Virus record (IMG/VR): IMGVR_UViG_2778261058_000008
Span: 1 to 4,534 of that record
Direction: 5' to 3' (one strand)
DNA length: 4,534 nt
Source: a virus
Lineage: Duplodnaviria > Heunggongvirae > Uroviricota > Caudoviricetes
Positions within the stretch are counted from its first letter, which is position 1, and each line of letters begins with the position of its first letter. The position numbers and the translations under genes were made by a program. Below, piece by piece: positions 1 through 4,534 of this stretch. The notes below the pieces were generated by a model, which did no database searches, was not told the origin of the DNA, and saw only the letters and a program-made list of their open reading frames with translations.

Positions 1-2
1 GT

Positions 3-30
3 TTGCGGGAAAAGGAGAGTTAAGTAGAAT
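3..30 (+). promoter_or_regulatory. Candidate sigma70 promoter for the hok mRNA
   Basis: -35-like TTGCGG (3-8), 16-nt spacer, -10 TAGAAT (25-30). Predicted start near 37-39 sits just upstream of the conserved 5' hairpin and gives a ~415-nt transcript ending at the 432-453 terminator, the size expected for a full-length hok mRNA. Window edge truncates the upstream context. Confidence 0.35.
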
Positions 31-43
31 TGCTGCGGGTGCT

Positions 44-60
44 TGAGGCTATCTGCCTCA
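44..60 (+). promoter_or_regulatory. 5' stem-loop of the hok mRNA (tac-like element)
   Basis: TGAGGC (44-49) pairs with GCCTCA (55-60) around a 5-nt loop. The surrounding GCTTGAGGCTATCTGCCTCA closely matches the 5' end of the plasmid R1 hok mRNA as I recall it (GCUUGAGGCUUUCUGCCUCA). Confidence 0.4.
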
Positions 61-94
61 GGCATGAACACCAAAAGGCAGATAGAGAAAAGCC

Positions 95-173
95 CCAGTT
101 AACATTACGCGTCCTGCAAGACGCTTAACATTAATCTGAGGCCCAATCTATGTCTCACAAATGTAGGTTAGCC
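95..173 (-). ncRNA. Candidate Sok-like antisense RNA (type I antitoxin); boundaries approximate
   Basis: Placed by analogy to hok/sok: antisense to the mok-like initiation region. Minus strand has weak promoter candidates (TTGCCT-17-TAACCT, or a TAAGAG -10 that is conserved with my recollection of R1) and a hairpin GCGTC-loop-GACGC (complement of 109-124) followed by a U-rich stretch. Start and end cannot be fixed from sequence alone. Confidence 0.3.
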
Positions 174-362
174 TCTTACGTGCCGAAAGGCAAGGAGAAG
201 CAGGCTATGAAGCAGCAAAAGGCGATGTTAATCGCCCTGATCGTCATCTGTTTAACCGTCATAGTGACGGCACTGGTAACGAGGAAAGACCTCTGCGAGG
301 TACGAATCCGAACCGGCCAGACGGAGGTCGCTGTCTTCGTAGACTACGAATCTAGAGAGTAA
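150..362 (+). CDS. mok-equivalent reading frame, here in frame with hok (70 codons, would give an N-terminally extended Hok)
   Basis: ATG at 150 with GAGG (138-141) 8 nt upstream. Flanking CTATGTCT and AGCCTCTTAC match the mok start region of R1 as I recall it. In R1 mok is offset +1 from hok; here the mok-ATG to hok-ATG distance is 57 nt, so the frames coincide. Confidence 0.3.
   Translation: MSHKCRLASYVPKGKEKQAMKQQKAMLIALIVICLTVIVTALVTRKDLCEVRIRTGQTEVAVFVDYESRE
207..362 (+). CDS. hokD: Hok/Gef-family type I toxin, 51 aa (small membrane peptide)
   Basis: Translation MKQQKAMLIALIVICLTVIVTALVTRKDLCEVRIRTGQTEVAVFVDYESRE: single hydrophobic helix, conserved LTRK..LCE.R motif of Hok proteins, near-identical over most of its length to HokD/RelF of E. 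coli K-12 as I recall it. SD AAGGAG (192-197) 9 nt before the ATG. Gene symbol is by similarity and position, not verified. Confidence 0.85.
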   Translation: MKQQKAMLIALIVICLTVIVTALVTRKDLCEVRIRTGQTEVAVFVDYESRE

Positions 363-371
363 GAGAGACCA

Positions 372-393
372 GGCGGGAGAGTAATCTCCCGCC
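372..393 (+). promoter_or_regulatory. 3' stem-loop of the hok mRNA (fbi-like element)
   Basis: 9-bp stem GGCGGGAGA (372-380) / TCTCCCGCC (385-393) closed by a GUAA (GNRA) tetraloop, 10 nt after the hok stop. Assignment as the fold-back element is by analogy to hok mRNAs. Confidence 0.4.
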
Positions 394-431
394 ACCTCTG
401 ATGTGTCGGCATCCTCAACGCACCCGCGCTT

Positions 432-453
432 AACCCGCTTCGGCGGGTTTTTT
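432..453 (+). terminator. Intrinsic terminator ending the hok transcript
   Basis: Stem AACCCGC / GCGGGTT with a UUCG tetraloop (439-442), followed by six T (448-453). Confidence 0.7.
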
Positions 454-528
454 GTTTTACGTATTCTGGTTTACAATCCACAGGCCAGCCTGAACAACTG
501 GCACCTGCTGCGCCAGCAGAGAAAACAG

Positions 529-801
529 ATGGCGCACAATACCAAATTACACAATTCTGATACCGTTCGTGCCAGCAGGCACGGGCGGCGCTCTCACGCA
601 TTCAAATATGACTGGTATCAGCACGATCCCTGCACTGAAGAACAGGCCGAATGGCTGATTCAGAACTACCGCAGACGTGGGTATGAGTTTAAGAAAGCCC
701 TCAACCTCGATTATCGTCACTGGATAATCTACGTCAGACTCCCTTATTCCGAACGCCCACCGCGTCCGTCCCGCACATTCCAGCAACGCATCTGGAGGTA
801 A
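529..801 (+). CDS. Hypothetical small phage protein, 90 aa, at the position Rem occupies in Qin
   Basis: ATG at 529 (weak SD GAGAAA); stop TAA 799-801 lies 1 nt before the GTG of the next gene, so the two look coupled. The longer track ORF from 403 would start inside the hok terminator and is not favoured. No recognisable motif; function unknown. Confidence 0.5.
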   Translation: MAHNTKLHNSDTVRASRHGRRSHAFKYDWYQHDPCTEEQAEWLIQNYRRRGYEFKKALNLDYRHWIIYVRLPYSERPPRPSRTFQQRIWR

Positions 802-802
802 C

Positions 803-1852
803 GTGCGGGTATTGCTTCGACCTGTTCCGGTACCGGAACTCGGGCTGGTGGTCCTTAAGCCTGGTCGTGAATCCATGCAGGTATTTCATAACCCTCGAGT
901 GCTGGTGGAACCGGAACCGAAAAGCATGCGCGGTCTGCCGTCCGGAGTCGTTCCTGCCATTCGCCAGCCGCTGGCGGAAGACAAAACATTGCTGCCGTTT
1001 TTCAGTAACGAACGGGTGATTCGTGCTGCTGGCGGCGCTGGTGCACTTTCTGACTGGCTGTTGCGTCATGTCAAATCCTGCCAGTGGCCTCATGGCGACT
1101 ATCACCACAGCGAAACCGTCATACATCGTTACGGTACCGGCGCGATGGTGTTGTGCTGGCACTGCGACAACCAGCTGCGTGACCAGACTTCCGAATCACT
1201 CGGGCAACTTGCTCATCAAAACCTGTCAGCATGGATGACTGACGTCATCCGTCACGCAATGAATGGCACACAGGAGCGGGAATTATCGCTGGCTGAATTA
1301 TCCTGGTGGGCGGTCTGCAATCAGGTAGCGGACGCATTACCGGAGGCAGTATTACGTCGTTCGCTGGGATTGCGTGCGGAAAAAATCCGCTCAATGTACC
1401 GTGAAAGCGACATCGTACCGGGAGAGCAGACCGCCACCAGCATACTGAAGCAGCGCACAAAAAATCTTGCGCCGTTGCCTCACGTCCACCAGCAACAGAA
1501 CGCACCACAGGAAAAGACGGTGGTCAGCATTGCCGTAGATCCGGAGTCTCCGGAATCTTTCATGAAGCGACCTAAACGTCGCCGTTGGGTAAATGAGAAA
1601 TACACGCGCTGGGTGAAGACACAGCCGTGTGCGTGTTGTGGCAAGCCAGCCGACGATCCCCATCACCTGATTGGTCATGGTCAGGGAGGGATGGGAACAA
1701 AAGCCCACGATATTTTCACGCTACCGCTGTGCCGGGAACATCACAACGAGCTTCATGCGGATCCGCTGGCGTTCGAAGAAAAGCATGGTTCCCAGGTTGA
1801 TTTAATTTTTCGTTTTCTTGATCACGCCTTTGCAACTGGCGTGCTTGGGTAA
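803..1852 (+). CDS. ydfU: DUF968-family phage protein, 349 aa, with a C-terminal Cys/His-rich nuclease-like motif
   Basis: GTG start at 803 preceded by GGAGG (794-798). Same length and gene position as YdfU of Qin in my recollection. C-terminus reads CACCGKPADDPHHLIGHG...LPLCREHHNELH (about 1630-1760), resembling a zinc-binding HNH-like signature. Confidence 0.8.
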   Translation: MRVLLRPVPVPELGLVVLKPGRESMQVFHNPRVLVEPEPKSMRGLPSGVVPAIRQPLAEDKTLLPFFSNERVIRAAGGAGALSDWLLRHVKSCQWPHGDYHHSETVIHRYGTGAMVLCWHCDNQLRDQTSESLGQLAHQNLSAWMTDVIRHAMNGTQERELSLAELSWWAVCNQVADALPEAVLRRSLGLRAEKIRSMYRESDIVPGEQTATSILKQRTKNLAPLPHVHQQQNAPQEKTVVSIAVDPESPESFMKRPKRRRWVNEKYTRWVKTQPCACCGKPADDPHHLIGHGQGGMGTKAHDIFTLPLCREHHNELHADPLAFEEKHGSQVDLIFRFLDHAFATGVLG

Positions 1853-1864
1853 AAGAGGTGACTG

Positions 1865-2224
1865 ATGCTCATAGATTTGGTTTTACCTTACCCGCCGACG
1901 GTGAACACTTACTGGCGACGCCGTGGCAGCACATATTTTATCTCGGAGGAGGGAAAGCGTTATCGTCGGGCTGTGGCGCTTATTGTTCGCCAGCAGCGGC
2001 TGAAATTAAGCCTGTCCGGAAGGCTGGCGATAAAGGTGATTGCAGAGCCACCGGATAAGCGTCGTCGCGACCTGGACAATATCCTGAAAGCACCACTGGA
2101 TGCGTTGACGCATGCGGGGTTGCTTATCGACGACGAGCAGTTTGATGAAATCAATATTGTGCGCGGTCAGGTCGTTCCTGGTGGTCGGCTGGGGATAAAA
2201 ATCACAGAGCTGGAGTGCGCATGA
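1865..2224 (+). CDS. rusA: RusA-family Holliday junction resolvase, 119 aa
   Basis: SD GAGGTG (1855-1860) then ATG 1865. Translation carries the RusA core PDKRRRDLDN...LIDDEQ; the three Asp at 69, 71 and 90 line up with the catalytic D70/D72/D91 of E. coli RusA. Confidence 0.9.
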   Translation: MLIDLVLPYPPTVNTYWRRRGSTYFISEEGKRYRRAVALIVRQQRLKLSLSGRLAIKVIAEPPDKRRRDLDNILKAPLDALTHAGLLIDDEQFDEINIVRGQVVPGGRLGIKITELECA

Positions 2225-2910
2225 ATAACCAGTATTTACAGTTTGTTCGTGAGCAGCTCATTATCGCCACCGCCGATTTGAGTGGGGCAACAAAAGGTCA
2301 GCTTGAAGCCTGGCAGGAGAATGCCATGTTCGATACAGGGCGTTACAGGCGTAAAAAAATCCGGTACCGCGATGAAGTGACCGGAAAAATGATCACGCGG
2401 GATAATCCACCAATCCCGGGGAAACAATCGCTGGCGAAGGGGACGTCAATTCCTCTGGTAAGTCAGGTTGAGTTTTCGACATCATCATGGCGACGGGCAG
2501 TTCTGTCTCTTGAAGAACATCATAAAACCTGGTTGTTGTGGTGTTACAGCGGGAGTATTTGCTGGGAGTATCAGGTCACCATAACCCGCTGGGCATGGGA
2601 AGAGTTTAAGGCTCATTCTGGCAACAGGAAAATTGCAGAGAAAACACGGGAGCGCCTGAAAAAATTAATCTGGCTGGCGGCACAGGATGTGAAGAGTGAG
2701 CTAGCTGGGCGTGAAACTTATGAATATCAGGAACTGGCATTACTGGCGGGAGTAACAACAAAAAACTGGTCCAAAACATTTACTGGTCACTGGGTTGCAA
2801 TGAAACACATTTTCCACCGGCTGGATAGTGAGGCTTTATTGTTTGTGATGAGAACACGCTCAGAACAAAAGACGGCATTTTCAAAGCAAAGTGTTGCAAA
2901 AGTAGATTAA
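2221..2910 (+). CDS. Late-gene antiterminator Q-like protein (Q82/Qin-type), 229 aa
   Basis: ATG 2221 overlaps the rusA stop (ATGA at 2221-2224) with GGAG 5 nt upstream; an in-frame GTG at 2215 is an alternative start. Gene lies directly after rusA, and its 3' end overlaps a promoter that is followed about 70 nt later by a terminator, the geometry of Q / PR' / tR'. Family call rests on context and general resemblance, not a search. Confidence 0.6.
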   Translation: MNNQYLQFVREQLIIATADLSGATKGQLEAWQENAMFDTGRYRRKKIRYRDEVTGKMITRDNPPIPGKQSLAKGTSIPLVSQVEFSTSSWRRAVLSLEEHHKTWLLWCYSGSICWEYQVTITRWAWEEFKAHSGNRKIAEKTRERLKKLIWLAAQDVKSELAGRETYEYQELALLAGVTTKNWSKTFTGHWVAMKHIFHRLDSEALLFVMRTRSEQKTAFSKQSVAKVD

Positions 2911-2922
2911 AAGGCATATATT
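2894..2922 (+). promoter_or_regulatory. PR'-like late promoter overlapping the 3' end of the Q-like gene
   Basis: -35 TTGCAA (2894-2899), 17-bp spacer, -10 TATATT (2917-2922); predicted start near 2929-2930. Confidence 0.45.
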
Positions 2923-2928
2923 TCGTGC

Positions 2929-2999
2929 AAATCTGATATTTTGCCGATTTTGTACTCGATGGCAAAGTAAGCAAATCCCGCCGCCGAGCGGGTTTTTTT
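2929..2999 (+). ncRNA. Short terminated late-promoter transcript, about 70 nt (analogous to lambda 6S RNA / StxS)
   Basis: Runs from the predicted PR'-like start to the T-tract of the tR'-like terminator; no ORF with an SD inside. Confidence 0.3.
2977..2999 (+). terminator. tR'-like intrinsic terminator
   Basis: Stem CCCGC (2977-2981) / GCGGG (2988-2992), 6-nt loop, seven T (2993-2999). Confidence 0.75.
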
Positions 3000-3014
3000 G
3001 TTGGCTTAACAGGT

Positions 3015-3020
3015 TATAAT
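3015..3020 (+). promoter_or_regulatory. Consensus -10 hexamer TATAAT; possible moron promoter for the MazF-like gene
   Basis: Perfect TATAAT 84 nt upstream of the ATG at 3104, but only a T-rich, poor -35 that overlaps the terminator T-tract. Confidence 0.3.
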
Positions 3021-3103
3021 GTATAGTGCGAAACTGCCTGTTCAGCAGAATCATTTTGTTTGTAGTGGAGTTCACAAGTCGTCATTATCAGGCAAAGAGA
3101 TTT

Positions 3104-3505
3104 ATGGTATTAAAGTATCAGCCGTCTGTTCGTTCTGTTTTAATGTGTGATTTTCGGGGAATGGTTGTTCCGGAAATAGTCAAGGTCAGGCCAGTGGTGG
3201 TCGTGTCCAGAAACAGGCACAACAATCAATTGGTAACAGTGGTACCAATAAGCACTACTGAACCGCTCCCTCGCAGAGATTGCCATCATGAGTTATCAGA
3301 AAACCCCATACCTGGTAATGAGCATATTACTTGCTGGGTAAAATGTGACATGTTGATGACGGTTTCATTGAGCCGACTGGATCGCATAAAAACCAGAACC
3401 TGGGAGGGACGAAATTATATTGTTCCTATGATTGCGGAAGATGAGTTTGAGAATATTAAACGGGCGGTATTGCACGGGATAGGGATGGCTTATCTGTATC
3501 GATAA
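3104..3505 (+). CDS. MazF/PemK/Kid-fold (CcdB/MazF superfamily) toxin-like protein, 133 aa, with no adjacent antitoxin ORF
   Basis: ATG 3104 with SD AAAGAGA (3094-3100). Translation SVLMCDFRGMVVPEIVKVRPVVVVSRNRHNNQLVTVVPISTTEP matches the MazF pattern (IWVDFDP...HRPAVVLS...CVPCTT) with the same 11-residue spacing between DF and RP; C-terminal region also aligns loosely. Could alternatively belong to an uncharacterised phage late-region family such as the YbcV/YdfO (DUF1398) type; I cannot tell them apart without a search. Confidence 0.6.
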   Translation: MVLKYQPSVRSVLMCDFRGMVVPEIVKVRPVVVVSRNRHNNQLVTVVPISTTEPLPRRDCHHELSENPIPGNEHITCWVKCDMLMTVSLSRLDRIKTRTWEGRNYIVPMIAEDEFENIKRAVLHGIGMAYLYR

Positions 3506-3529
3506 TCGAAAACGATTATCGAATTCGAT
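3499..3529. repeat. Palindrome cluster overlapping the stop codon of the MazF-like gene
   Basis: Perfect 10-bp inverted repeat TCGATAATCG (3499-3508) / CGATTATCGA (3513-3522) with an AAAA spacer, overlapping a 12-bp perfect palindrome ATCGAATTCGAT (3518-3529). Stop codon TAA is at 3503-3505. Confidence 0.7.
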
Positions 3530-3540
3530 ATGAATTTATA

Positions 3541-3569
3541 TTGACACACATAGTGTGTTGGCTGATACT
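3541..3569 (+). promoter_or_regulatory. Strong sigma70 promoter candidate with a palindrome in the spacer
   Basis: Consensus -35 TTGACA (3541-3546), 17-bp spacer, -10 GATACT (3564-3569), AT-rich tract upstream (3530-3540). Spacer holds ACACA-TAG-TGTGT (3546-3558), which looks like an operator. Confidence 0.5.
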
Positions 3570-3575
3570 GTCGCT

Positions 3576-3690
3576 GTACCCTGATGGGACTTGTGAGACT
3601 TCCGAACAGGAAGCCAGGAGTAGCGATGAGGTGATGACAAGCCTGCTGCCCCTGTGTAAAAGGCACCTTAATGGTGCCTTTGTCGTTTTT
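3576..3690 (+). ncRNA. Candidate small RNA, about 115 nt (about 148 nt if it reads to the second terminator at 3723)
   Basis: Defined by the promoter at 3541-3569 and the hairpin plus T-tract at 3659-3690. Only trivial ORFs inside: a 2-codon ORF after AGGAG (3616-3620) and a 25-codon frame from ATG 3634 that runs through the terminator stem and has no properly spaced SD. Confidence 0.3.
3659..3690 (+). terminator. Intrinsic terminator candidate
   Basis: Stem AAGGCACC / GGTGCCTT around loop TTAAT, then GTCG and five T (3686-3690). Confidence 0.5.
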
Positions 3691-3700
3691 ATCAAAAGAT

Positions 3701-3723
3701 CCCGCCACTGAGCGGGTTTTTTT
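3701..3723 (+). terminator. Intrinsic terminator; near-identical second copy of the tR'-like terminator
   Basis: Stem CCCGC (3701-3705) / GCGGG (3712-3716), 6-nt loop, seven T (3717-3723). ATCCCGCC...GAGCGGGTTTTTTTGT is shared with 2974-3002; only two loop bases differ. Confidence 0.75.
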
Positions 3724-3845
3724 GTGTCCTAAAAACGGCACAGGACGTTAAACGCGCTGGTGGTTGCGAATACGGGTCTTTCAGCTTGCTGGCTTTTTCG
3801 ACAAGAGTTATTGGTATGTCACGTTAACCAGAAAAGGAAAAAGAC

Positions 3846-4043
3846 ATGCTAAAACAGCAGGATATGACCGAAACTGCCAGAGTAGTGTTTAATGAATTGA
3901 GCGTCACCGAACCGGCGACCGTCGGGGAAATTGCGCAGAACACGTACCTTTCACGCGAACGCTGCCAGTTAATACTGACTCAGCTTGTTATGGCAGGTCT
4001 GGCAGATTATCAGTTCGGTTGTTACAGACGCCTTTCGCAGTGA
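3846..4043 (+). CDS. Small 65-aa protein, probable winged-helix/HTH DNA-binding protein
   Basis: SD AAGGA (3834-3838) 7 nt before ATG 3846. Segment ATVGEIAQNTYLSRERCQLILTQLVMAGL has helix-turn-helix character. Function is inferred, not established. Confidence 0.6.
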   Translation: MLKQQDMTETARVVFNELSVTEPATVGEIAQNTYLSRERCQLILTQLVMAGLADYQFGCYRRLSQ

Positions 4044-4193
4044 AGGTTTTTTTATTTGTGGTAATGGGCGGCTGGTGGGTGTTAGCGGCACCTGCCAGCC
4101 ATCTGCTCATGCGTTGGGGTCACAAGCAAACCTCAGGCCCATCTGCTTTGCGCAAAAGCGGTATGAGCCTATCAGAGAAGTGCTTATTGATCT

Positions 4194-4534
4194 ATGGCTA
4201 ATACTGTAAAAATATCCAGTTGTGAGTTAATCAACGCTGATTGCCTGGAATTTATCCAGACCTTACCGGAAAACTCTGTCGATCTGATAGTCACAGACCC
4301 GCCATACTTTAAAGTGAAGCCCGAGGGCTGGGATAACCAGTGGAAGGGCGACGATGATTACCTGAAATGGCTGGATCAGTGTCTGGCGCAATTCTGGCGG
4401 GTACTGAAACCTGCCGGAAGTCTCTACCTGTTCTGTGGTCATCGCCTGGCATCTGACACCGAAATCATGATGCGTCAGCGCTTTAATGTGCTGAACCACA
4501 TTATCTGGGCGAAGCCGTCCGGACGCTGGAACGG
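4194..4534 (+). CDS. N6-adenine DNA methyltransferase (N6_N4 MTase type), 5' part only; runs off the window
   Basis: Hand translation from ATG 4194 gives MANTVKISSCELINADCLEFIQTLPENSVDLIVTDPPYF... with the catalytic DPPY motif in the SVDLI-x-x-DPPY context seen in beta-class adenine methylases such as E. coli YhdJ. In-frame TGA directly upstream (4188-4190) fixes the start. No stop before the window end, which is why it is missing from the ORF track. Confidence 0.85.
   Translation, partial: MANTVKISSCELINADCLEFIQTLPENSVDLIVTDPPYFKVKPEGWDNQWKGDDDYLKWLDQCLAQFWRVLKPAGSLYLFCGHRLASDTEIMMRQRFNVLNHIIWAKPSGRWN

Follow-up and report, generated by a model that had tools for sequence, protein, structure and literature searches.

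How is a MazF-like toxin gene held in check where no antitoxin gene lies beside it? The question is raised by a cassette in positions 1 to 4,534 of the IMG/VR virus record IMGVR_UViG_2778261058_000008, the 4,534-nt stretch analysed here (in the following, the window), which is the late-regulatory region of an Escherichia coli lambdoid prophage. MazF is among the best-studied bacterial toxins, and to our knowledge its antitoxin is a protein in every characterised system. A first-pass annotation of the window had read the cassette as a moron inserted at the terminator tR', comprising a toxin-fold protein without an antitoxin gene and an adjacent small RNA unit, in a layout that is neither canonical type II nor canonical type III. 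Our results bear out this description: the RNA covaries and travels with a subfamily of MazF proteins across phyla, and neither a protein antitoxin nor an RNA of tandem repeats nor a toxin of the ToxN family was found in the cassette. Judging from comparative sequence data, we consider it fairly probable that this RNA is the antitoxin of the MazF-fold toxin, the two forming a dedicated two-gene mobile module.

The small RNA is predicted to fold into four helices (P1–P4; coordinates of all features are given in Table 1). P3 closes the conserved loop GGUGAUGACAAGCC, with the apical loop at 3633–3640, and P4 is the intrinsic terminator hairpin of the RNA (tail UUUGUCGUUUUU; UUUGUC(A/G)UUU follows in the alignment). 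The minimum free energy of the window RNA was −43.9 kcal/mol (z = −4.2), none of 200 shuffles folded as well, and the sequence scored 127.5 bits with our covariance model R1. Covariation was assessed for 76 distinct homologues aligned to a covariance model, a fit that in itself favours the structure. In this set 94.3% of the cells were paired, compared with 40–48% when the partners were slid by 1–3 columns; 25 of the 32 pairs had changed on both sides; and the covariation score was 0.488 versus 0.04–0.09, with none of 500 shuffles reaching any of the observed measures. Compensatory changes were already seen in a structure-blind MAFFT alignment. Furthermore, the lengths of the RNAs were spread evenly over the three classes modulo 3, indicating that the RNA holds no conserved reading frame. 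The open reading frames (ORFs) that overlie the RNA region (56 aa on the plus strand, 83 and 59 aa on the minus strand) and the RefSeq ‘hypothetical protein’ calls were rejected as non-coding because of the covariation and of lengths that are not multiples of three. Upstream of the RNA, divergent enterobacterial cassettes contain TTGACT-17-AATACT at the same distance as the promoter in the window, and an ATAAT or ATACT −10 element was also found in distant clades. Searches against Rfam 15 gave no match over 3576–3691 at E ≤ 1; for six distant loci, the homologous RNAs likewise had no match at E ≤ 0.1. Taken together, the sequence comparisons indicate a real structured RNA gene that belongs to an RNA family absent from Rfam 15.

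Divergent copies of the RNA were located in viral contigs directly behind mazF-like genes with 74–79% identity, and blastn detected the RNA unit behind genes with 47–55% identity in Noviherbaspirillum, Massilia, Brevundimonas and metagenome-assembled genomes (MAGs). Scans of viral and metagenome collections with short DNA patterns gave mostly chance matches and were filtered by blastn or by the covariance model. Within E. coli the RNA is rare and was present in just 37 of 5,426 complete genomes.

We quantified the linkage of RNA and toxin gene in two samples of loci that were selected by the protein. The first consisted of 80 loci with 43–58%-identical homologues from 185,579 species genomes. 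The RNA was found at 77 of them, always on the strand of the gene and with its start a median of 45 nt past the stop codon; of the other three, one is cut short by a contig end 107 nt past the gene, and two are from Neisseriaceae (Kingella and Alysiella), where the refined model R2 gave weaker matches just upstream of the gene. In the second sample, which comprised 80 viral-contig loci with 38–100% identity, model R1 detected the RNA at 61 loci. Model R2 added matches with E < 0.1 in 14 of the remaining 19 (four of them weak, with E = 0.03–0.08) and strengthened three matches that were marginal under R1, and the five viral loci without a match include one truncated gene and two truncated loci. 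Thus, the RNA adjoins the toxin gene on the same strand in ~154 of 160 loci from Proteobacteria, several MAG phyla and phages. It usually lies downstream of the gene and sometimes upstream. That the order varies while adjacency and strand are kept argues for a functional coupling of the two and against an accident of the 3' untranslated region. Upstream copies on the same strand, at Neisseriaceae-type and some viral loci, occur at L204 2357–2473, L200 2349–2476, L426 1386–1502 and L411 1363–1476 as well as in L419 and L422/L424.

The pair was found on chromosomes of Geobacter, where it adjoins a type III restriction-modification system, and of Pseudomonas; it also occurs in tectivirus-like elements of Vibrio with a length of 13 kb and, upstream of lysis genes, in lambdoid and Mu-like prophages of Enterobacter. 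In distant genomes, RNAs of other mobile elements are located immediately past the pair, namely a C4 antisense RNA (78.9 bits) in Pseudomonas putida (L168 3457–3543), sRNA-Xcc1 in a Pasteurellaceae genome (L139 3131–3219), and a group II intron in a Saccharibacteria MAG (L165 3111–3407). The pair often resides in mobile DNA outside the enterobacteria, too.

Presence and absence of the two genes are not symmetric. When viral sequences were searched with the RNA, 13 of 29 matches had no toxin gene (one of these is cut by the end of the locus). Such RNA-only copies typically follow a Q gene (L124, L085) or another moron (L211), and further examples were L003, L009 and L010. In strain E9 (L009; NZ_CP104500.1, 2414–2650), the RNA stands alone, ~75 nt past a PR'-like promoter that belongs to another type of Q, and homology to the window starts at about 3571–3579, which is the transcription start predicted for the RNA promoter of the window. 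By comparison, toxin-only copies were essentially not found among the homologous loci examined. Such a pattern would be expected of an RNA that does no harm by itself and a protein that does. Moreover, no adjacent small ORF in the same orientation that could encode a protein antitoxin was present in the window or, with one exception (L432, see below), at the homologous loci inspected. Considering this asymmetry together with the conserved active-site positions of the MazF fold and the absence of a protein antitoxin, an RNA antitoxin is the most economical reading.

Some of the lone RNAs have settings of their own. The RNA of L009 lacks its own promoter and would be part of the constitutive PR' short transcript; in L124 (6254–6480) the RNA alone directly follows a Q gene of a different type. 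Lone RNAs of the L009/L124 type may be relics or phage-borne antidote decoys, and for phages with only the RNA in their constitutive PR' leader, it may serve to decoy the toxin of rivals or hosts that are armed with it. In strain A34 (L010; NZ_CP028741.1) the RNA occurs alone among other toxin-antitoxin genes. There, a Panacea-domain gene and then an unannotated ORF of ~100 codons lie upstream of a ParD/ParE pair (1567–2300), so that toxin-antitoxin genes seem to be densely packed into an island behind the lysis genes.

The protein partner had PemK_toxin as its sole Pfam match (E = 5.6e-14; 52.7 bits against a cutoff of 23.1) and corresponds to phrog_15698 (unknown function; E = 1.5e-47). Close relatives are named ‘YifN (PemK superfamily)’ in JGI annotations, and RefSeq labels the gene ‘type II toxin-antitoxin system PemK/MazF family toxin’. 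An AlphaFold2 model was obtained with a predicted local distance difference test score (pLDDT) of 91 and a predicted template modelling score (pTM) of 0.84. Its 50 best Foldseek matches in the PDB were all MazF-family toxins (MazF, YdcE, MoxT and similar; E about 1e-6), with template modelling scores normalised to the target, TM(target), mostly of 0.65–0.81. A profile search of the PDB matched MazF proteins alone and weakly so (best E = 0.016), the identity to characterised MazF proteins was 14–21%, and the score with the NCBIfam MazF equivalog was 13.9 bits against a cutoff of 120. In the HMMER alignment, R29 falls on R29 and S50 on T52 of E. coli MazF, which are catalytic positions. Both residues belong to those invariant in an alignment of 42 homologues (P7, C15, P23, E24, K27, R29, S50, P54, W78, K80, D82 and R91). 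The profile match, the modelled SH3-like barrel of the MazF/Kid fold and the positions of the catalytic Arg and Thr/Ser place the protein in the PemK/MazF superfamily, and it is probably a divergent, active RNase of the MazF family. A search of 1.84 billion representatives with the protein profile recovered 790 clusters at 50% identity when the threshold was E ≤ 1e-10; with E ≤ 1e-30 there were 166.

The loop of P3 may also link the RNA to the toxin gene by base pairing. In the window, the leader element UCGUCAUUAUC can pair with the RNA at 3630–3640 in 10 of 11 positions including two G.U pairs. Related enterobacterial cassettes contain UUGUCAUCACC(A) versus GGUGAUGACAA, a perfect complement of 11–12 nt that forms a conserved island at −25 in at least five cassette variants with differing flanking leader sequence, and two of the changes in the window are C-to-U transitions that preserve G.U pairs. 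In the independent L378/L131 lineage, UGUCAUCGUC faces the loop GGCGAUGACA with a compensatory change from U:A to C:G, and L394 shows a perfect 8-nt match of GUCAUCGC to GCGAUGAC. Complementarity of 8–12 nt was thus seen in three phage-borne lineages, about 20–25 nt upstream of the ATG. A scan for the longest complement had also produced a cluster at +89, which was put down to Val/Ile codons and to the fact that the Pseudomonas loci are related to one another. The loop is nearly invariant even in clades without the complement, which suggests that it is constrained chiefly by some conserved partner, in the simplest case by the toxin protein. A likeness of the loop (GACAAG) to the 3' region of 16S rRNA (UAACAAGG) is too short to be evidence. 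Within the toxin leader (3048–3104), the predicted fold places the Shine-Dalgarno region and the loop-complementary element inside a long hairpin (z = −2.7), which, if formed, could add to the control of translation in the way known from the hok mRNA.

The cassette is an insertion. The terminator hairpins at 2977–2999 and 3701–3723 both lie within a direct repeat of 27 nt, ATCCCGCC[GCC/ACT]GAGCGGGTTTTTTTGT, whose two copies are 25/27 identical and spaced by 724 nt; the pattern had two matches in the window and none in 200 shuffles, so the pair of near-identical terminators in the first-pass annotation is no chance resemblance. The TATAAT hexamer, the MazF-like CDS (coding sequence), the palindromes at its stop codon, the TTGACA promoter and the short terminated unit were likewise located at or near the positions given there. 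In a search with positions 2300–4400, four states of the interval between Q and the methylase gene were distinguished. The full cassette is present in the window, L001, L005 and L006. The empty site is represented by strain C5 (L002), where the flanks are 95% identical and the interval is exactly 724 bp shorter with a single terminator, whose stem-loop resembles copy 1 and whose 3' flank is the sequence that follows copy 2 in the window. A short cassette in L003 and eight other genomes joins the leader (3000–3063) to the RNA unit at a CAT microhomology and lacks only the toxin gene and the −35 element of the RNA. Finally, L004 (NZ_CP028740.1, 1000–2030) harbours alternative cargo at the same insertion site (near 3000/3724 of the window), a 237-aa membrane protein of the STM1630 family flanked by a duplicated terminator plus ~50 nt of downstream sequence. 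Among the 5,426 E. coli genomes, ~24 contain the whole cassette, and more than 2,000 E. coli genomes match from about 3699 onward only. This presence/absence polymorphism in related E. coli prophages confirms the insertion at tR', and the promoter- and terminator-bounded unit with its empty, short, full and alternative site states is a phage moron.

The junction cannot be placed inside the 27-nt repeat, and the 724-bp frames from 2975–3698 through 3002–3725 are equivalent. The first-pass annotation had taken the terminator bracket as the product of recombination within tR'. The insertion at tR' holds, but copy 2 is not merely a copy made by the insertion, as a similar CCCGCCAYYGAGCGGG-T terminator follows the RNA in cassettes outside E. 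coli (L102, L215, L124, L085 and L211), showing that copy 2 belongs to the module; L102 and L215 have another such terminator ahead of the toxin leader. The module's own terminal terminator probably supplied the homology with tR'. On this model, a module whose terminator resembled tR' would have entered there by terminator-internal recombination and left the duplicated bracket. Given the alternative cargo of L004, the tR' junction appears to be a hotspot at which cargo is acquired repeatedly by way of homologous terminators.

The cassette has two other sequence features. The TATAAT in the leader has no matching −35 element and was not called in the promoter scan; it is retained in the short cassette and is possibly a weak promoter of the toxin gene. 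The palindromes at the stop codon and a further inverted repeat, ACACAC/GTGTGT at 3544–3558 in the spacer of the RNA promoter, are not conserved outside the E. coli lineage, and cassettes with 74–79% identity have other sequence at 3499–3530. Being lineage-specific, they were dropped as part of the mechanism.

How could such a module work? We infer the toxicity, its neutralisation and the mechanism, as well as any role in defence or addiction, from the arrangement described above. In a lysogen, the strong promoter of the RNA would be active at all times and yield an excess of RNA, whereas the toxin would be made at a low level from the weak leader promoter or by read-through of tR', which would shield the toxin gene, and the RNA would keep the toxin harmless. 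The near-invariant loop and other conserved single-stranded stretches would most likely bind the protein directly, as a pseudo-substrate like in type III systems. In phage-borne lineages, including the window, the loop could in addition pair, in a type I-like manner, with a stretch of the toxin mRNA leader that closely precedes the ribosome-binding site, so that antisense translational control would be an added layer in these lineages. When RNA synthesis stops, through loss of the element or shut-off of transcription by an infecting phage, free RNase would arrest the cell. Alternatively, Q-driven late transcription could flood the cell with toxin mRNA and cause arrest. Neither tR' nor the terminator of the RNA nor copy 2 would stop the Q-modified polymerase, and the module might accordingly be expressed with the late operon; as no terminator lies between the CDS and the RNA, the toxin transcript should carry the RNA in cis. 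The complete proposal goes further than the antitoxin assignment and is put forward tentatively, as a serious possibility short of being probable: an undescribed class of toxin-antitoxin systems, in which a MazF-family RNase is neutralised by a single-copy structured RNA via the invariant GAUGACAAGCC loop, the same loop represses toxin translation in phage lineages (a type I/III hybrid), and the pair is widespread, with ~790 clusters at 50% identity and an occurrence in several types of phage as well as in Proteobacteria and further phyla.

Several observations weigh against an RNA antitoxin or against parts of this mechanism. Duplex energies (RNAduplex) of the whole RNA or the P3 loop with the own leader (−60 to +14) were no better than those of shuffled controls, with a mean z of about 0 across 76 loci, and loop/leader complementarity was not found in the Pseudomonas, Caulobacteraceae and Pasteurellaceae loci; antisense pairing as a universal mechanism was rejected on the basis of these energies. 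Direct binding of the RNA to the protein is suggested by a single feature, the invariance of the loop. In being single-copy and in its usual position downstream of the gene, the RNA differs from all known type III antitoxins, and its occurrence without the toxin gene might point to an RNA with an independent function. At L432 (1246–1497), an 83-aa ORF of the Xre type with a helix-turn-helix domain ends 4 nt before the start of a MazF-like gene whose product is a 41%-identity homologue; a weak RNA match (28 bits) lies downstream there, too, and this lineage may have a protein partner. The protein had no match in PADLOC 2.0, and our literature search found no experimental data on activity or toxicity for any YifN/COG3692 member. 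E. coli K-12 yifN, the namesake of the subfamily (L348; NC_000913.3, 3960012–3960460), is a pseudogene followed by a non-significant P1/P2-like fragment (6.5 bits), and the K-12 chromosomal copy appears decayed in both parts, gene and RNA.

Other explanations of the locus have to be considered alongside the RNA antitoxin. The RNA could be solely a trans-acting antisense repressor of the toxin leader, blocking translation or promoting decay without contact to the protein. The complement conserved in otherwise variable leaders of the enterobacterial variants, the 10 of 11 pairs in the window, the compensatory change and the match in L394, all at −21 to −25 from the ATG, would fit such a type I-like function. 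We nevertheless regard it as unlikely, because the complementarity is missing in most clades, because free co-variation of an antisense pair would not keep a loop nearly invariant where no complement exists, and because the toxin is not a small hydrophobic peptide. It is also conceivable that the locus is no toxin-antitoxin system and that the RNA is the real effector, for instance a regulator of host or phage transcripts, with the protein as its RNA-binding or processing partner (maturase, chaperone or nuclease). RNA-only copies in the constitutive PR' leader (L009, L124) and elsewhere (L010, L211) would agree with this, and the invariant loop could target a conserved cellular RNA. Yet no conserved target was identified, the MazF fold and the catalytic Arg and Ser/Thr positions are kept, the settings (prophage morons, neighbourhood of a restriction-modification system, small mobile elements) are those in which toxin-antitoxin and defence genes are typically found, and the presence/absence asymmetry fits an antitoxin, which makes an effector RNA quite improbable.

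Much poorer is the case for an ordinary type II MazF with an overlooked protein antitoxin, or for a decaying orphan, in which the RNA would be a terminator region or a remnant PR'-tR' leader that stems from another phage. The RefSeq label, short ORFs annotated over the RNA region in some genomes and the position of the L009 unit in the PR' leader of another Q type could be cited in its favour, but none of the clades inspected has a conserved ORF adjoining the gene, base pairs in the RNA region have changed in a compensatory way and its indels do not come in multiples of three, and a chance remnant cannot explain a linkage that persists down to 38% protein identity; we hold this to be very improbable. 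That the two terminators are ancestral tandem features and nothing was inserted is scarcely credible: tandem terminators are common and the second one is present in RNA modules of other phages, but the empty site in C5 with its one terminator, as well as the intermediate and alternative cassettes at the same position, speak against it. The RNA antitoxin encoded next to its toxin hence remains our preferred reading.

The genes of the window are arranged in the order hok/sok, an ORF of phrog_1212, DUF968, rusA, Q, the cassette region, a winged-helix gene and a DNA methyltransferase gene (Table 1). In strain P13-6, a locus with 99.8% identity is followed by tRNAs, holins and head genes. RefSeq names Q ‘bacteriophage antitermination protein Q’ at identical loci; the sequence of the PR'-like promoter is kept in the related loci L002–L006; and at the empty site of L002 the winged-helix gene directly follows the single terminator. 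The predicted short transcript from PR' to tR' (2927–2998) showed a sub-threshold likeness in Rfam to Salmonella IsrK (19.5 bits, E = 0.51, not significant), which we take to be a Gifsy-1 RNA at the equivalent position. The hok/sok-type locus, a type I toxin-antitoxin system located 3 kb upstream of the cassette, is complete and is annotated as hokD in identical prophages. Two RNA-linked toxin modules, hok/sok and the MazF-like/RNA cassette, are thus present on one prophage arm.

Table 1 Features of the 4,534-nt window in order of position
Feature	Position	Strand	Remarks
hok/sok locus	37–362		Rfam sok, 121.7 bits at 37–212; Hok/Gef Pfam match on 150–362
DUF968 gene	803–1852		
rusA	1865–2224		
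Late antiterminator Q gene	2215–2910	+	Pfam Phage_antiter_Q PF06323, E = 2e-92; marks the start of the late operon
PR'-like promoter	2894–2922	+	TTGCAA-17-TATATT; promoter scan 9/12; overlaps Q stop codon
Terminator copy 1 (tR')	2975–3001	+	Terminator scan; hairpin 2977–2992 plus T7; left boundary of cassette
Insert, 724 bp	3002–3725	+	Missing from empty site; ends with terminator copy 2
TATAAT hexamer	3016–3021	+	Read from sequence; in cassette leader
Leader element UCGUCAUUAUC	3079–3089	+	15–25 nt upstream of ATG
MazF/PemK-fold protein gene, 133 aa, YifN/COG3692 subfamily	3104–3505	+	Pfam PF02452; presumed endoribonuclease toxin
Palindrome cluster over toxin stop codon	3499–3530	.	TCGATAATCG/CGATTATCGA at 3499–3508/3513–3522; TATCGAA/TTCGATA at 3517–3530
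RNA gene promoter	3541–3569	+	TTGACA-17-GATACT; promoter scan 10/12, best promoter-like match in window
Structured small RNA, ~115 nt	3576–3691	+	P1 3576–3590; P2 3599–3613; P3 3615–3654; P4 3659–3681
Terminator copy 2	3699–3725	+	Hairpin 3701–3716 plus T7; right boundary; second, tandem terminator of RNA gene
Small winged-helix gene, phrog_331	3846–4043	+	First gene past cassette
DNA methyltransferase gene	from 4194		

If the RNA acts as proposed, an RNA-controlled subfamily of MazF would break the rule of protein antitoxins, would add a single-copy folded RNA to antitoxins of the repeat-array kind, and would account for the listing of these genes as ‘orphan’ toxins in databases. The RNA escapes annotation pipelines, which assign the gene to ‘type II’. 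With its strong covariation and a clear genetic partner, the RNA family offers a tractable model for RNA recognition by the MazF fold, and the copies of the RNA without the gene hint at an arms race in which carriers of the antidote oppose carriers of the toxin. The start of the late operon, where the module is located, is the site of stx in Shiga-toxin phages. The pair is without description in Rfam 15, PADLOC 2.0 or the searchable literature: nothing relevant was found on yifN, COG3692, the loop sequence or a MazF with an RNA antitoxin, and the full-text index of a 2026 preprint on the mining of non-coding elements contained no occurrence of MazF or PemK.

Among known systems, MazEF, PemIK and Kid-Kis share the fold, the Pfam family and the positions of the catalytic Arg and Ser/Thr with the cassette protein. 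They differ in the MazE/PemI-type antitoxin gene, which is absent upstream of the gene described here, and the similarity to characterised MazF proteins is marginal. Type I systems (hok/sok, tisB/istR-1, ralR/ralA, symE/symR) resemble the phage lineages of the cassette in having a small RNA with a short complement near the translation start of the toxin mRNA, and RalR and SymE illustrate that type I toxins can be nucleases. In contrast to these systems, the RNA lies on the same strand and is not an overlapping antisense transcript, the complementarity of 8–12 nt is missing in most clades, the RNA is conserved far beyond the need of an antisense pair, and the toxin is predicted to be a soluble 133-aa protein of the MazF fold and not a small hydrophobic one. 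As a promoter-gene-terminator unit that is present or absent, with alternative cargo at its site, the cassette is similar to lambdoid morons at the Q-PR'-tR' position, where other lambdoid phages carry stx genes and PR' RNAs of the StxS/6S type. Its cargo differs in being a protein-RNA pair that is conserved outside phages, in the chromosomes of Pseudomonas and Caulobacteraceae. Another prophage-encoded small RNA linked to a MazF toxin is HnrS, a multi-copy sRNA of enterohaemorrhagic E. coli prophages that pairs with the last 15 nt of the CDS in the chromosomal mazF mRNA and for which no effect on toxicity was found (bioRxiv 10.1101/2025.11.27.690950). The RNA of the cassette, set apart from HnrS by description and not by sequence, is encoded beside its own MazF-like gene.

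The closest functional parallel is offered by type III systems (ToxIN, CptIN, TenpIN; AbiQ/antiQ), which combine an endoribonuclease toxin with a non-coding RNA without a protein antitoxin, occur in phages, plasmids and defence islands, and set their stoichiometry by transcription signals between the two genes. The fold of ToxN is related to that of Kid/MazF. The antitoxins of these systems are tandem arrays of ~36-nt repeats upstream of the toxin, whereas the cassette has a single-copy, four-helix RNA of ~115 nt with its own promoter. A search of the window for tandem repeats with TRF (Tandem Repeats Finder) found just a 13-nt palindromic stretch at 3498–3530, which does not amount to a type III repeat array. 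Type III toxins are of the ToxN/AbiQ, CptN or TenpN families, and the toxin here is a PemK/MazF protein that PADLOC does not recognise. By analogy, the cassette would thus work most like a type III system and depart from it in the defining features, i.e., the repeat-array antitoxin, its upstream position and the ToxN-type toxin. It is best described as a variant of RNA-antitoxin systems that is built on a MazF-family toxin and a well-supported RNA family, with a function predicted from sequence.

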